Positions 34,747-55,252 of a stretch of DNA of 64,000 bases are shown in pieces (position 1 is the first letter of the stretch; the number at the start of each line of letters is the position of its first letter). The notes below the pieces were generated by a model that worked only from the letters and a program-made list of their open reading frames with translations, did no database searches and was not told the origin of the DNA. Origin of the DNA: Ruminococcus flavefaciens (lineage in GTDB: Bacteria > Bacillota > Clostridia > Oscillospirales > Ruminococcaceae); the NCBI GenBank assembly GCA_002371825.1, contig DFHF01000022.1, positions 5,101 through 69,100 of the forward strand, in the 5' to 3' direction. The translations under genes and the position numbers were made by a program.

Positions 34747-35090
34747 CACGGCACATAAGGGAAGCAGCATTTACTTTCTATCTAAGATGAGCGAAAGCAG
34801 AGTAAGTGCCTCGAACAGAGCATCAGCGTGAAAAGGGATGCAAGGGATGTTATCCCTTGCCAGAGCCCAGAGGCAGCGCCTCTGGTCGCCGTTTTCAGCT
34901 TTAAAGACGGCGAAATAATACGAAGGCGCTTCGCAAAGGGTGAATCCCCAAACAGTCCGGTGGACTGTTTGGGGAGAGGGAATGCCTTGCAAGTGAAGGC
35001 ATTCCCTTGTTACAGCGCACAATTTATATGCCTGCGGAGTTACCTCCGCACATAAAAAGTAAATGCTGTTGCCGTGCCGGCTCATCCGGC
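34747..35090. repeat. Composite palindromic (REP-like) element
   Basis: At least seven hairpins (34840-34860, 34867-34885, 34886-34913, 34921-34933, 34945-34975, 34977-35007, 35033-35050) enclosed by agcagcatttactt (34763-34776) / aagtaaatgctgtt (35057-35070). Confidence 0.75.
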
Positions 35091-35239
35091 GATAACAGAT
35101 GATTTAAGATAAAAAAGACGGCAAATGATGATTTAACTTAAATTATGCAGAAATTGTAGACAATATACAAAACGGTATGGGATTAGTTCGTATAACCGGC
35201 CAAAATTTTACTGCCGGATAAAAATTAAGCTTAACTGGA

Positions 35240-35268
35240 TTGATTTGTTCATATTAAAAGTCTATAAT
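35240..35268 (+). promoter_or_regulatory. SigA promoter of the mannanase gene
   Basis: TTGATT-17-TATAAT. Confidence 0.7.
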
Positions 35269-35269
35269 A

Positions 35270-35359
35270 AATGTGTAATCAATAACCGCCCTACGGCGGT
35301 TATTGCCCTGAACTTTGTTCAGGGAGCGCAAATTCTTTATAAAATATGGAATTTGCGCA
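35270..35359 (+). repeat. Three-hairpin leader element, copy A
   Basis: 82/90 nt identical to 54461-54550. Confidence 0.9.
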
Positions 35360-35544
35360 TCGCATTTCTTTATGTCATGCTCATTTTGCCCTTTAGGGCA
35401 AAACAAAGTGCAGGAAAAATTATCGGATAATTTTTCCTTGCACTCTGACAACTGAAAATTGGCTTTTAAAAGCTGTATAAAGCCAATTTTAAGTTGTTGA
35501 GCAGACATTAATTAAAGCATATTTTAGATAGGAGGATATTAAAA

Positions 35545-37374
35545 ATGTATCTGAAGATGATCAAAAAAGCAGGAGCATCAGTTCTGGCAGCAGCTATCAC
35601 CCTCAATGGAGCAGTTGTGGGTGCAGCAGGGGTATCTGCGGCCGATCAGGAAGTGACCCGCTATGAGTGGGAAGACGCTGAATTCACTGGTACAGGCGGT
35701 GTTAAAGAGGATAAGGACGCTTCGGGCGGAAAGTATTTCTACCTTGAAAGCAATTCTGATACCGCAACACTGAAGGTGACTGTTCCTTCGACCGGAATGT
35801 ATAAGCTTACAATAGGCTATAATGCAGCTTTCGGTGAGAAGATACAGAACCTTTATGTCAATGGAGTGGATCAGGGACAGCTCTCCTTCACTTCAAAGAC
35901 ATGGACGGAGCTCAACTGCGGTGCAGTAAAGCTCAATGAGGGCGAAAATGAGGTAATGATAAAGAGCAGCTGGGGCTGGACAAACTTCGATTATCTCATA
36001 GTAGAACCGGCTCAGCTGGGAAAGATCGAGGCAAAGCAGACTACTCCGGTGGACAAGCTTGCTACCAAGGAGACCAAGAGCCTCATGTCATATCTTGCAG
36101 GTGTCTACGGAAAGAATATCATTTCCGGTCAGCAGGAGATATACAAGTATGGTCCCCACGATATGGAATATGAATTTGAGTACCTCAATGATACCACGGG
36201 CCACTATCCGGCTATAAGAGGCTTCGACTACGGCAACTTCACCTGTCCGGCATTCGGCAGTGACGACGGTTCAACAGAGCGTGTTATCAGCTGGGTAAAG
36301 GAAAAGAACGGTATCGCCACATCCTCATGGCACCTTAATGTCCCCAATAAGATGGAGGATTTCACAATAGGAAGCAAGATAGACTGGTCTGCTACCTCAT
36401 ACACTGCAAAGGATAACGACTTTATGCCTTCAAAGGTATATGTTGAAGGCACCAAGGAGAATCAGTACTATGAGCAGGCTCTTAAGACTCTTGCAGCTGA
36501 GTTCAAGAAGCTGGAAGAGGCCGGAGTTCCGCTTATCTGGAGACCTCTCCATGAGGCCGAAGGCGGCGGCGGAGAGAACGGTTCATGGTTCTGGTGGGGC
36601 AAGGAAGGCTCAGAGGTCTATAAGAAGCTCTGGCGCTATACCTACGATAAGCTGGTAAATGAGTACGGCTGCCACAATCTTATCTGGGAATGGAACAGCT
36701 ATAACTATGAGACATCAGCAAACTGGTACCCCGGTGATGAATATGTTGATATCATAGGCTACGATAAGTACAACTGTACAGACTGGTCATCAGGAAGTGC
36801 GGTGCTCAAGCATAACGACAGCGCTATAAGCTCAACATTCTACGGAATAATGGAGAAATATGACCATCAGAAGATGGTATCCATGGCTGAGAATGACTGC
36901 TTCTCCACTGTTGACAATCTGACAGCTGAAAAAGCAGGATGGCTCTATTTCTGTACATGGTATGATGGCGGAAGCGCAGATAACAACTTCCTTACAAATC
37001 CTGTTTTCAACACAAAGGAAGACACTATAGCTATGTATCAGAGCGATTACTGCATCACTCTGGATGAGCTCCCGAAAGACCTTTATTCAAAGGAAAGCGG
37101 AAACGACGAGGATGAGTATACTGTTACATTGTGGGGAGATGCAGACTGTGACGGCTTTGTCAAGATGAATGATGCAGTTCTCGTAATGCAGTCCATCTCA
37201 AACGGTGACAGATTTGGTCTTGAAGGAACAGATGAGCATCATCTTACTCCTCAGGGCGCAGCAAATGCTGACTGCTATGATCCGGGCAGCAAGATCACTC
37301 CTATGGACGCAAACTCCATACAGAAATTCCTTCTCAATCAGATCAGCGAATTTCCGGAAAAAGCTTCCGAGTGA
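35545..37374 (+). CDS. Cellulosomal beta-mannanase: CBM35-GH26-dockerin
   Basis: Signal peptide; CBM35-like module (RYEWEDA...KSSWGWTNFDY); GH26 motifs IISGQQ, PLIWRPLHEAEG, WFWWG, DIIGYDKY, SMAEN, WLYFCTW; Ruminococcus group-1-like dockerin WGDADCDG..MNDAVLVMQ...MDANSIQKFLL. Confidence 0.92.
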   Translation: MYLKMIKKAGASVLAAAITLNGAVVGAAGVSAADQEVTRYEWEDAEFTGTGGVKEDKDASGGKYFYLESNSDTATLKVTVPSTGMYKLTIGYNAAFGEKIQNLYVNGVDQGQLSFTSKTWTELNCGAVKLNEGENEVMIKSSWGWTNFDYLIVEPAQLGKIEAKQTTPVDKLATKETKSLMSYLAGVYGKNIISGQQEIYKYGPHDMEYEFEYLNDTTGHYPAIRGFDYGNFTCPAFGSDDGSTERVISWVKEKNGIATSSWHLNVPNKMEDFTIGSKIDWSATSYTAKDNDFMPSKVYVEGTKENQYYEQALKTLAAEFKKLEEAGVPLIWRPLHEAEGGGGENGSWFWWGKEGSEVYKKLWRYTYDKLVNEYGCHNLIWEWNSYNYETSANWYPGDEYVDIIGYDKYNCTDWSSGSAVLKHNDSAISSTFYGIMEKYDHQKMVSMAENDCFSTVDNLTAEKAGWLYFCTWYDGGSADNNFLTNPVFNTKEDTIAMYQSDYCITLDELPKDLYSKESGNDEDEYTVTLWGDADCDGFVKMNDAVLVMQSISNGDRFGLEGTDEHHLTPQGAANADCYDPGSKITPMDANSIQKFLLNQISEFPEKASE

Positions 37375-53724: not shown

Positions 53725-54246
53725 TCAGTGCTTTTCGTGAAGACCTGTCAGCTTAGGCAGACAGAATTCAAGAACAGCACAGTATTTATCAATGAGTGTG
53801 ATGATATAAGTCTCCTTGTATTTAGGCAGAGGCCTTGTGGCCGGCCACATATGCTTTTCTATCATATCACGTTCAAGCGGAGTGAGGGGAGTAAGCTCAG
53901 CAGCATTCTGTACTGCGATAAAAGCGTGCATGGCGCTGTGTGAGAGCTGTCCCTTTTCCTTGGAGCTGTTGTACTCCTTTCTGTTATAGAAGAAAAGATC
54001 GTGGAGCAGGCCTGCTCTTGCGGCGGAACGGGCATTAAGCCCTAATTTCCGGCAGACGAGCCAGCTGTAATAGGAGACATTGAGACAATGCTGGAACCTT
54101 GTAGTGGATATGTGGTGAGTTATGCTCCTGAGTCTGATAAGCTGACGGCAGCCGATAATATCGGAAACGCAGCTGTAATATTCAGAAAATGAGAGCTCCT
54201 TTCTGGAGCCGATAGCTTTTAACATAGACACATCCTTTTCGGTCAA
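53725..54246 (-). CDS. HD-domain phosphohydrolase
   Basis: HHISTTRFQHCLNVS, AGLLHDLFFY, H, IEKHMWP, DKYCA. Confidence 0.85.
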   Translation of the reverse strand: MTEKDVSMLKAIGSRKELSFSEYYSCVSDIIGCRQLIRLRSITHHISTTRFQHCLNVSYYSWLVCRKLGLNARSAARAGLLHDLFFYNRKEYNSSKEKGQLSHSAMHAFIAVQNAAELTPLTPLERDMIEKHMWPATRPLPKYKETYIITLIDKYCAVLEFCLPKLTGLHEKH

Positions 54247-54430
54247 AGGTCAATATCATCTGATAAGAAAATTATACCCTATATTATAAAAAAAATCAAT
54301 AGCTGACAGAAATTTCACAGAATTATCATATGATTTCAATAGGCTAACTTGGAATTGATTCAGTGCCATTGTATTGCTTGCGAAATATCATAAATATGCC
54401 TGCATATCAATTTTCAATGCTTTCAGCGTC

Positions 54431-54459
54431 TTGATTTATTTGCAAAGATGTGCTATAAT
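54431..54459 (+). promoter_or_regulatory. SigA promoter of trmB
   Basis: TTGATT-17-TATAAT with extended TG. Confidence 0.7.
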
Positions 54460-54460
54460 C

Positions 54461-54550
54461 AATGTGTTCTCAATAACCGCATTACGGCGGTTATTGTCCC
54501 GAACTTTGTTCAGGGAGCGTAAATTCTTTATAAAAAATGGAATTTGCGCA
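54461..54550 (+). repeat. Three-hairpin leader element, copy B
   Basis: 82/90 nt identical to 35270-35359. Confidence 0.9.
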
Positions 54551-54589
54551 GATATTAATTGCATCAAAACTTGTTTACCGGAGGTTTAT

Positions 54590-55252
54590 ATGAGAATACG
54601 TCATAAACCATGGGCAAAGCCGGAACTTGAGGCCTGCCCGTTTTATATAAAAGAACCTCAGCAGCAGATAGGCCGCTGGAGAGAGCTTTTCGCCGAGCCG
54701 GACAAGCCCCTTTATGTGGAGCTTGGCTGCGGCAAGGGAGGCTTTATCTCGCAGGCAGCTCCGGCTCATCCGGAAGTGAATTTCATTGCTATGGATATAA
54801 AGAACGAGATGCTGGTGCTGGCTAAGAGAAAGCTGGAACAGGCCTATGCGGAAAAAAATGCCTCTCCGGACAATGTTCGCATAGCCATACAGAATATCGA
54901 GCGGCTTGAACTGGCATGGGACGAAAATGACCGGGCAGAGAGGATATATATCAATTTCTGCAATCCGTGGCCGAAGAAAAAGCACAAGAAGCGCCGCCTG
55001 ACACATACAAGGCAGCTTGTGAACTATAAGAAATTCCTGAAAGGGGAGCTCTGGTTCAAAACTGATGATGACGAGCTCTTTGAGGAGTCCTTTGAGTATT
55101 TCGCAGAGGCCGGATACCGCATAAAGTACAAGACCTTCGACCTTCATGCCGAAAGTCCCTACGAGAATTTTGTGACCGAGCACGAGAAGATGTTCACTGA
55201 TGAGGGAAAGAAGATAAAGTTCCTCATAGCTGAACCTGTCAGGGAGGACTGA
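54590..55252 (+). CDS. trmB: tRNA (guanine-N7)-methyltransferase TrmB
   Basis: MRIRHKPWA, VELGCGKGGF, YINFCNPWPKKKHKKRRLT, FKTDD, TEHEKMF; RBS ggaggt; start 54590. Confidence 0.94.
   Translation: MRIRHKPWAKPELEACPFYIKEPQQQIGRWRELFAEPDKPLYVELGCGKGGFISQAAPAHPEVNFIAMDIKNEMLVLAKRKLEQAYAEKNASPDNVRIAIQNIERLELAWDENDRAERIYINFCNPWPKKKHKKRRLTHTRQLVNYKKFLKGELWFKTDDDELFEESFEYFAEAGYRIKYKTFDLHAESPYENFVTEHEKMFTDEGKKIKFLIAEPVRED

Follow-up and report, generated by a model that had tools for sequence, protein, structure and literature searches.

Bacterial MITEs (miniature inverted-repeat transposable elements), which are non-autonomous, are small, lack a transposase gene and are characterized by terminal inverted repeats, target duplications and stem-loops (PMC3184786). 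The Correia elements (CREE/NEMIS), which are known from Neisseria only (PMC3184786), are non-coding MITEs of approximately 100-160 bp with terminal inverted repeats and a short AT-type duplication. They are found in many copies, often 5' of genes, are co-transcribed, form hairpins at the level of RNA, and exist in full-length and internally deleted classes (PMC3184786 and general knowledge). In these traits they are similar to the element from Ruminococcus described here. However, sequence and phylum are unrelated, and Correia elements duplicate TA, have 26-bp terminal repeats and may bring outward promoters and an IHF site, while the Ruminococcus element has a different repeat sequence and no promoter of its own, is located directly behind a host -10 box in nearly a single orientation, and duplicates AT, AA, AG, TA or ATA, in most cases the central AT or ATA of the target TA[AT]TA. 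Within the Firmicutes, the MITE-like repeats bcr1-bcr3 of the Bacillus cereus group have comparable properties: they are approximately 155 bp long, are flanked by short direct repeats, vary in position between strains, are transcribed in 5'- and 3'-UTRs, and show compensatory changes which preserve a cruciform-like structure (PMC3184786, PMC3446304). Of these, bcr3 correlates with decay rate (PMC3446304). In contrast to our element, bcr1 has 5-bp direct repeats and an unrelated sequence, and there is no report of its siting at -10/+1 junctions or of a locked orientation. RUP and BOX of Streptococcus pneumoniae and ERIC of enterobacteria are also short structured intergenic repeats often found within transcripts, and RUP and ERIC additionally have terminal repeats and TA flanks (PMC3184786). 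They differ from the Ruminococcus element in that they show no promoter preference, occur in both orientations and belong to other hosts with other sequences. Elements of the IS30 family produce duplications of 2-3 bp, use AT-rich palindromic targets and form abutted ends with 2-bp spacing; the Ruminococcus element shares all three properties, and the family was considered as a candidate source of its transposase.

Ruminococcus flavefaciens is a key fibre degrader. The analysed stretch of its genome (64,000 nt; the window) was suggested in the original prediction to contain a duplicated cassette of promoter and three-hairpin leader, with copy A upstream of a cellulosomal mannanase gene and copy B upstream of trmB. 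Both copies are indeed present and are approximately 91% identical across approximately 98 nt (the -10 box up to and including hairpin 3), a similarity which chance does not come near to explaining, and in both of them the repeat starts with the first base past the -10 box, which confirms the same offset from the promoter. Copy B is, at a probability of roughly 0.87, a MITE of the R. flavefaciens group: it is small, has no transposase gene, and shows terminal inverted repeats, a target duplication and dispersed copies that vary between lineages. It represents a new family of an established type of element, and what sets it apart is mainly its strong preference for promoters in one orientation. 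In our literature search no described MITE of R. flavefaciens was found.

The promoter of trmB (54431-54459, plus strand), which was recognized by a consensus scan, is outside the repeat. It consists of the -35 box TTGATT (54431-54436), a 17-nt spacer with TG at positions 54451-54452 (extended -10), and the -10 box TATAAT (54454-54459), the last two bases of which (AT, 54458-54459) are also the left copy of a 2-bp target-site duplication. Copy B itself, delimited by alignment to other copies, occupies 98 nt on the plus strand (54460-54557) and is followed by the right copy of the duplication (AT, 54558-54559). It starts with the 5' terminal repeat CAATGTGTTCTC, continues with hairpins 1 to 3, and is joined directly to a remnant of the 3' terminal repeat (CAGATATTA), which corresponds to the last nine 3' bases of the element. 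Hairpin 1 (CAATAACCGC / GCGGTTATTG, 54471-54496), the 5' arm of which is part of the terminal inverted repeat, is invariant across 55 full-length copies. Hairpin 2 (CCCGAAC / GTTCAGGG, 54498-54515) has one bulge and hairpin 3 (GCGTAAATTC / GAATTTGCGC, 54517-54549) one G-U pair in copy B. The fusion of the 5' end and hairpins 1-3 to the last nine 3' bases indicates, as judged from the alignment, that copy B is an internal-deletion derivative of an element of approximately 246 nt, in which both termini and the first three hairpins were retained. The hairpins stop 31 nt before the GGAGG of trmB, in line with the predicted distance of about 30 nt, and the end of the element at 54557 is 23 nt from it; GGAGG is located at 54580-54584, the ATG at 54590 and the stop codon at 55250-55252 (RBS and ORF 54580-55252, plus strand; 220 aa). 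The leader corresponding to copy B has a predicted fold with z = -5.8 when compared to shuffled sequences. In metagenome contigs, the depth rises from approximately 12 to approximately 150 precisely over 54460-54550, and loose ends at 54453/54454 and 54550 mark the boundaries of the repeat. No insertion polymorphism within the species was detected at trmB in four metagenome runs, where every contig carries the element and no joints were found.

Copy A (35269-35510, plus strand) is a full-length copy of 242 nt, reaching from AAATGTGTAATC to GAGCAGACATTA, and contains six hairpins and a long-range stem. Its AT flanks are at 35267-35268 and 35511-35512. The host promoter of the mannanase gene, TTGATT-17-TATAAT (35240-35268, plus strand; consensus scan), is located upstream of it, with the -35 box at 35240-35245 and the -10 box at 35263-35268. 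The ORFs overlapping copy A (61-84 aa) are no more than chance ORFs, interrupted by indels among the copies. Copy B does contain the three predicted hairpins, but they are merely the 5' part of an element of approximately 246 nt with six hairpins. Similarly, the statement that the two promoters are identical is correct for TTGATT-17-TATAAT, but the promoters do not belong to the repeated unit: homology begins at the -10 box, the spacers of the two promoters are unrelated, and the common TTGATT is coincidental.

Contigs from four rumen metatranscriptome runs start at 35297, 35305, 35379 or 35408, are unbroken to position 36100 and continue through copy A into the mannanase ORF at 35545, while no RNA contig from these data covers the region from 35000 to 35293. 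Copy A is therefore transcribed from the host promoter as a leader which is read through into the ORF. In the same kind of data no RNA contig crosses the leader corresponding to copy B, and coverage of the trmB ORF is low; that copy B is also transcribed is likely in view of its promoter and of copy A. Upstream of trmB, the divergent HD-domain gene (53725-54246, minus strand) is clearly expressed, with rumen metatranscriptome contigs reaching 54248-54253, and the intergenic region 54264-54468 has zero coverage. No terminator-like site was found on the plus strand of copy A or copy B. In the antisense direction, hairpin 1 is weakly terminator-like.

The anatomy of the complete element was derived largely from the genome G018 (MAG SIG537), which holds 42 copies; the 20 copies fetched are mostly near-identical units of approximately 246 nt with sharp ends. 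The full-length unit reaches from TAATGTGTCCTCAATAAC to GTTGATGAGCAGACATTA, with ends similar to TAATGTGTCC and GGACACATTA, and with its flanks has the form TAATG...CATTA. The terminal inverted repeats are imperfect: when the flanking TAAT is included, 18 of 22 positions match between TAATTAATGTGTCCTCAATAAC and the reverse complement of the 3' end TAATTAATGTCTGCTCATCAAC. The consensus secondary structure of 55 full-length copies, predicted with RNAalifold, comprises six hairpins and a long-range stem, and 98.3% of the cells are paired in it. A closing helix P1 (AATGTG/CACATT), which would make a four-way junction, was dropped, because RNAalifold gave it no support. Its 5' arm is at or upstream of the expected transcription start, and an internal inverted repeat within a two-module DNA element is the more plausible reading.

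Compensatory double changes were found in 25 of 70 base pairs, compared to 7.4 +/- 1.7 in shuffled alignments, and divergence is lower in stems (4.1%) than in loops (14.4%). A purely selfish MITE of the DDE type has no need of conserved stems or compensatory changes, and we counted both results against such an element. However, the covariation is almost wholly confined to two 3' hairpins, which are absent from copy B and many other copies, while hairpins 1-3 are near-invariant and are neutral as to pairing. Many of the double changes are swaps from U-A to A-U or from G-C to C-G. Furthermore, the fifth hairpin of some copies carries its loop inverted, as an exact reverse complement of the common form (alignment columns ~152-178; L160:6548-6793, L151:4409-4653), a sequence pattern which points to flipping or template switching at a palindrome at the DNA level. 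The pair swaps together with the inverted loops would be explained by templated correction of palindromes at the level of DNA and are probably no proof of RNA function.

A BLAST search together with a covariance model for hairpins 1-2 (R1) revealed 17 strong and approximately four degenerate copies in the 2.83-Mb assembly of this genome. Homology among them begins at the -10 box, while the -35 boxes and the spacers are unique host DNA. The 17 downstream genes are unrelated; they include those for the GH26 mannanase, an ECF sigma factor, an XRE regulator and a flippase as well as trmB, aroC, purB, mreB, galE, cobT and tyrA. Of the first 25 genomes of the genus, 11 carry the element, the number per genome ranging from 0 to 42, and 16 genomes representing other families of the order all lack it. 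The abundance differs strongly also between close relatives: none was found in the nearest relative (G067), 11 in G068 and eight in G041. A scan of named genomes with an exact pattern returned nearly exclusively Ruminococcus (R. flavefaciens strains, Ruminococcus sp. isolates, and rumen or gut MAGs); the matches with other labels are two MAGs assigned only to Clostridia and Bacillota. We examined 19 copies in five further genomes (G068, G041, G062, G074, G072), and among the 15 with a downstream ORF, purB is the only gene shared with the genome studied here.

For the analysis of the flanks, 53 unique full-length copies were taken from the genome studied here, from G018 and from named genomes of Ruminococcus. 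Upstream of the element the consensus is TATAAT, with T, A, T, A, A and T present in 43, 44, 51, 53, 50 and 46 copies, respectively, and downstream it is ATTA (51, 48, 35 and 46 copies). The two sides co-vary: AT/AT was found in approximately 40 copies, AA/AA in two, TA/TA in one, AG/AG in one and ATA/ATA in two, with two exceptions. As read from the sequences, these co-varying flanks are the signature of a target-site duplication of 2-3 bp centred in TA[AT]TA, although its length (2 or 4 bp) is ambiguous, because the ends of the element (TA...TA) resemble the target. Tandem and head-to-head copies parted by the 2-bp AT alone exist at the loci L160, L156 and L171 (G018 and other Ruminococcus genomes). 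The ends and the duplication together recreate the target TAATTA, so that elements insert beside each other, in a manner resembling the targeting of ends by IS30-type elements.

Orthologs of trmB are present in 55 of 61 genomes of the genus. In 28 of the 30 upstream regions inspected the element is missing and a short leader follows a TGnTATAAT promoter. Fixation upstream of trmB without other copies, named in the original prediction as the pattern that would speak against it, is thus not what was found. Most informative is G067, the TrmB protein of which is 95% identical to that of the genome studied here. It has the same -35 box, spacer, TG and TATAAT and no element, its sequence TTCAGCGTCTTGATTTATTTGCAAAGATGTGCTATAAT/TACATCAAC being followed by GGAGG, while the filled site reads CTATAAT(98 nt)AT/TGCATCAAAAC. 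At the junction itself, CTATAAT/TACATC in G067 corresponds to CTATAAT(element)AT/TGCATC here. Since the promoter in G067 is unchanged without the element, copy B was inserted into a pre-existing promoter with duplication of one AT. Empty sites in G067 at trmB, purB, the XRE regulator gene, galE and the flippase gene all retain the same -35 and -10 boxes, and a single AT fits each of them. The cleanest one is at purB, where GCTATAAT/TATAATAGATT in G067 corresponds to GCTATAAT(246 nt)AT/TACAATAGATT. Of the two possibilities in the original prediction, a mobile or a general expression module, mobility is therefore well founded in the terminal inverted repeats, the duplications, the empty sites and the patchy copies, while neither a duplicated cassette of promoter and leader nor a module which carries its own promoter is supported in view of G067.

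An alternative model with duplication of TA, as known for Tc1/IS630-type elements, is compatible with the copy of G018 located at L069 and with the site at mreB. It is less likely, because at trmB, purB and the XRE site it needs an indel of 4 nt, while the AT model needs at most two substitutions.

A second occupied trmB promoter was found in G060 (L102), a more distantly related genome, with a full-length copy, the middle part of which is given as N, behind its own CTATAAT. Since genomes with trmB genes closer to it lack the element, this copy is most simply explained by an independent event at the same target. Two other sites deserve mention. Compared to the copy at G000 C32:86029, the region upstream of mreB in G067 (L255) has TAA and ATA as extra bases between the flanks, and compared to G000 C43:19870, the region upstream of tyrA in G067 (L259) has an extra TAG, which corresponds to the first three bases of that copy. 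Both sites carry a 3-bp (ATA) duplication in the genome studied here. The extra bases could be excision footprints, for which this is weak evidence, or chance divergence.

How such an element comes to lie at promoters is suggested by its target. A -10 hexamer followed by TA (TATAAT-TA) contains the core TA[AT]TA, and the element was thus inserted past the -10 box but ahead of the transcription start of the existing trmB promoter. The insertion occurred in the lineage of this genome, with its nearest relative retaining the empty site. Transcription from the host promoter would then be initiated no more than ~7 nt into the element, which would become the 5' end of the trmB mRNA, and with a start ~7 nt past the -10 box hairpin 1 would be located ~5 nt from this end.

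A palindromic target predicts no orientation, and the strong orientation bias observed was counted against a plain MITE explanation. Exact TATAAT abuts the side of hairpin 1 in 36 of the 53 full-length copies and the other side in two (binomial p = 5e-9), and TTGnnn at a distance of 16-18 nt was found on the side of hairpin 1 in 23 of 53 copies and on the other side in none (p = 4e-8 against background). As background served the 683 TAATTA sites of this genome, a third of which are within TATAATTA and 12.9% of which have TTGnnn 16-18 nt upstream. Since the copies outside promoters have only the TAAT core in common, the full TATAAT, with its additional T and A, is a property of the promoter subset. 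Thus, the bias needs either selection or a directional mechanism. Most likely it is due to selection, with antisense insertions probably disrupting expression. The element has neither a promoter nor a terminator-like site on the plus strand, and a sense orientation can therefore be tolerated. Sense insertions would be neutral or, by analogy, mildly useful as a 5'-terminal stem-loop protecting the mRNA from decay that depends on the 5' end. In Bacillus, 5'-terminal stem-loops slow such decay. With low to moderate confidence, we propose that the 5' hairpins are put to use by the host.

This proposal leads to the alternative which survives best and which adds to the MITE reading rather than replacing it: a leader of MITE origin may have been domesticated, its 5' hairpins being selected for transcript stability or for tuning of translation. 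We regard this as possible but less likely than not. Besides the bias in orientation and towards promoters and the read-through of copy A into its gene, the partial copies in this genome are in line with it: 12 of them retain the 5' part (hairpins 1-2) and one has the 3' part only, an excess which, at the level of sequence, hints at selection on the 5' hairpins. However, the 5' part could also be retained simply because any deletion into the -10 box abolishes expression. Three species have an element at purB (this genome, G068 and R. flavefaciens 007c), and the copy in 007c has kept hairpins 1-2 and lost the 3' part; most sites, on the other hand, are lineage-specific, and the nearest relative lives without any copy at the same promoters. 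The stems are conserved, and on the sense strand G-U pairs are slightly in excess of A-C pairs (45 versus 28), but hairpins 1-3 are near-invariant and uninformative on pairing, and since the 5' arm of hairpin 1 is within the terminal repeat, its conservation may serve transposition. The analogy to the bcr repeats, which are transcribed in UTRs and of which bcr3 correlates with decay rate (PMC3446304), would also fit a domesticated leader.

It is tempting to speculate further that the element is a promoter-homing MITE locked in its orientation, which is inserted or kept only at sigma-70 -10/+1 junctions in the sense direction and has been domesticated as a portable 5' leader. We consider this far-reaching version doubtful, and slightly more so than domestication as such. 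If it is true, dozens of unrelated genes share 5'-terminal stem-loops which set mRNA stability or translation, and insertion or loss of the element is a routine way of retuning expression in these rumen bacteria.

The MITE reading would call for an enzyme acting in trans. No autonomous partner with the same ends was detected beside solo ends in G018 or in the genome studied here, most assemblies being MAGs, often without IS copies; the solo ends in G018 adjoin ordinary genes. An IS30-family parent was suggested by the duplication of 2-3 bp and the abutted ends. No such parent was found: an IS30-type transposase (NF033563) is absent from all nine element-bearing genomes tested, while it was found in two of nine element-free genomes searched, and no element combining the ends described here with a transposase gene was found. 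A tyrosine recombinase gene located beside a perfect 3' end of the element (L230) was also considered as the autonomous parent. It was rejected as a single-copy, housekeeping Xer-like gene: it is present in 36 of 41 genomes searched and in 16 of the 17 genera of the order sampled, many of them free of the element, and its sequence identity tracks phylogeny.

The lack of a DDE partner is one reason to consider that the element is moved by an enzyme of another type, either a single-strand HUH transposase (the element being a palindrome-associated derivative of IS200/IS605 which inserts 3' of TAAT, possibly in a melted -10 region) or a site-specific recombinase recognizing a TAATTA core. Such a mechanism would explain why the orientation is fixed relative to the directional -10 box, and the many hairpins would suit it. 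Elements derived from IS200/IS605 have no terminal inverted repeats, make no duplication and insert 3' of a fixed target of 4-5 nt. The element analysed here, in contrast, has terminal inverted repeats, and its flanks co-vary on both sides (AA/AA, TA/TA, AG/AG and ATA/ATA), while the TAAT on the 5' side, which it has in common with the IS200/IS605 pattern, is accounted for by the palindromic TA[AT]TA target. In addition, the copies outside promoters have just the TAAT core in common, and the only recombinase gene next to an end of the element is the Xer-like gene mentioned above. Thus, a mover of this type appears improbable.

Even less credible is a dedicated cis-regulatory leader RNA, either riboswitch-like or protein-binding, which would bring many genes under the control of one trans-acting factor and would have spread by duplication instead of transposition. 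The strong predicted structure, the covariation in the full-length unit and the position, which is always at the 5' end of the transcript, are in agreement with it. However, the covariation is located nearly exclusively in 3' hairpins which were lost by many copies including copy B, and much of it consists of U-A/A-U or G-C/C-G swaps as expected of templated correction of DNA palindromes. Rfam gave no match at the gathering score in the whole window and only chance-level ones in E-value mode over copies A and B, and the downstream genes form no coherent set. The element is not conserved at orthologous loci: most trmB promoters and even whole genomes of the same genus lack it. Finally, the inverted repeats at the termini, the duplication of the target, the copies arranged in tandem or head-to-head and those outside promoters speak against a leader RNA. 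The original prediction had already argued against a pathway-specific riboswitch, and the unrelated downstream genes together with the Rfam result bear this out.

The weakest explanation, a one-off segmental duplication of a cassette of promoter plus leader from the mannanase locus to trmB or in the reverse direction, rests on both promoters being TTGATT-17-(C)TATAAT. Their unrelated spacers speak against it, and it is already refuted by the unchanged trmB promoter without the element in G067 and by approximately 20 copies behind approximately 20 different promoters in this genome.

The identification of copy B as a MITE is important for several reasons. For annotation, it removes a false lead towards a riboswitch or regulon and accounts for approximately 20 similar-looking 'leaders' here and for hundreds in rumen Ruminococcus as a whole. 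At the DNA level, the family illustrates how a small transposon is guided to -10 boxes by an AT-rich palindromic target (TA[AT]TA), with the outcome that one and the same structured 5'-UTR is acquired by many genes, both housekeeping and cellulosomal. The ratio of 36 to 2 in orientation at promoters is a testable sign of selection or of a directional insertion mechanism. Last but not least, polymorphic insertions of the element might serve as strain markers and might contribute to differences in expression between strains.

Some of the degenerate sites are worth noting. Upstream of aroC, G067 (L257) has a structured native leader of approximately 130 nt behind the same promoter. In the genome studied here (G000 C25:87040) this leader is gone, and an element truncated at its 3' end is fused directly to the ribosome-binding site, which indicates that a deletion after the insertion eliminated what may have been a regulatory leader. 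The sole fragment with 3' hairpins only (G000 C58:41400-41600) adjoins a strong terminator-like hairpin. At three further sites (G000 C33:54234, minus strand; C32:19927, minus strand; C23:20140, plus strand), all that follows the promoter is the initial 11-18 nt of the element (TAATGTGTCTTC..., TAATGTGTTCTCAATAA...). These stubs may be remnants retaining only the 5' terminal repeat, and one of them runs straight into an apparent sequence of the cobalamin-riboswitch type.
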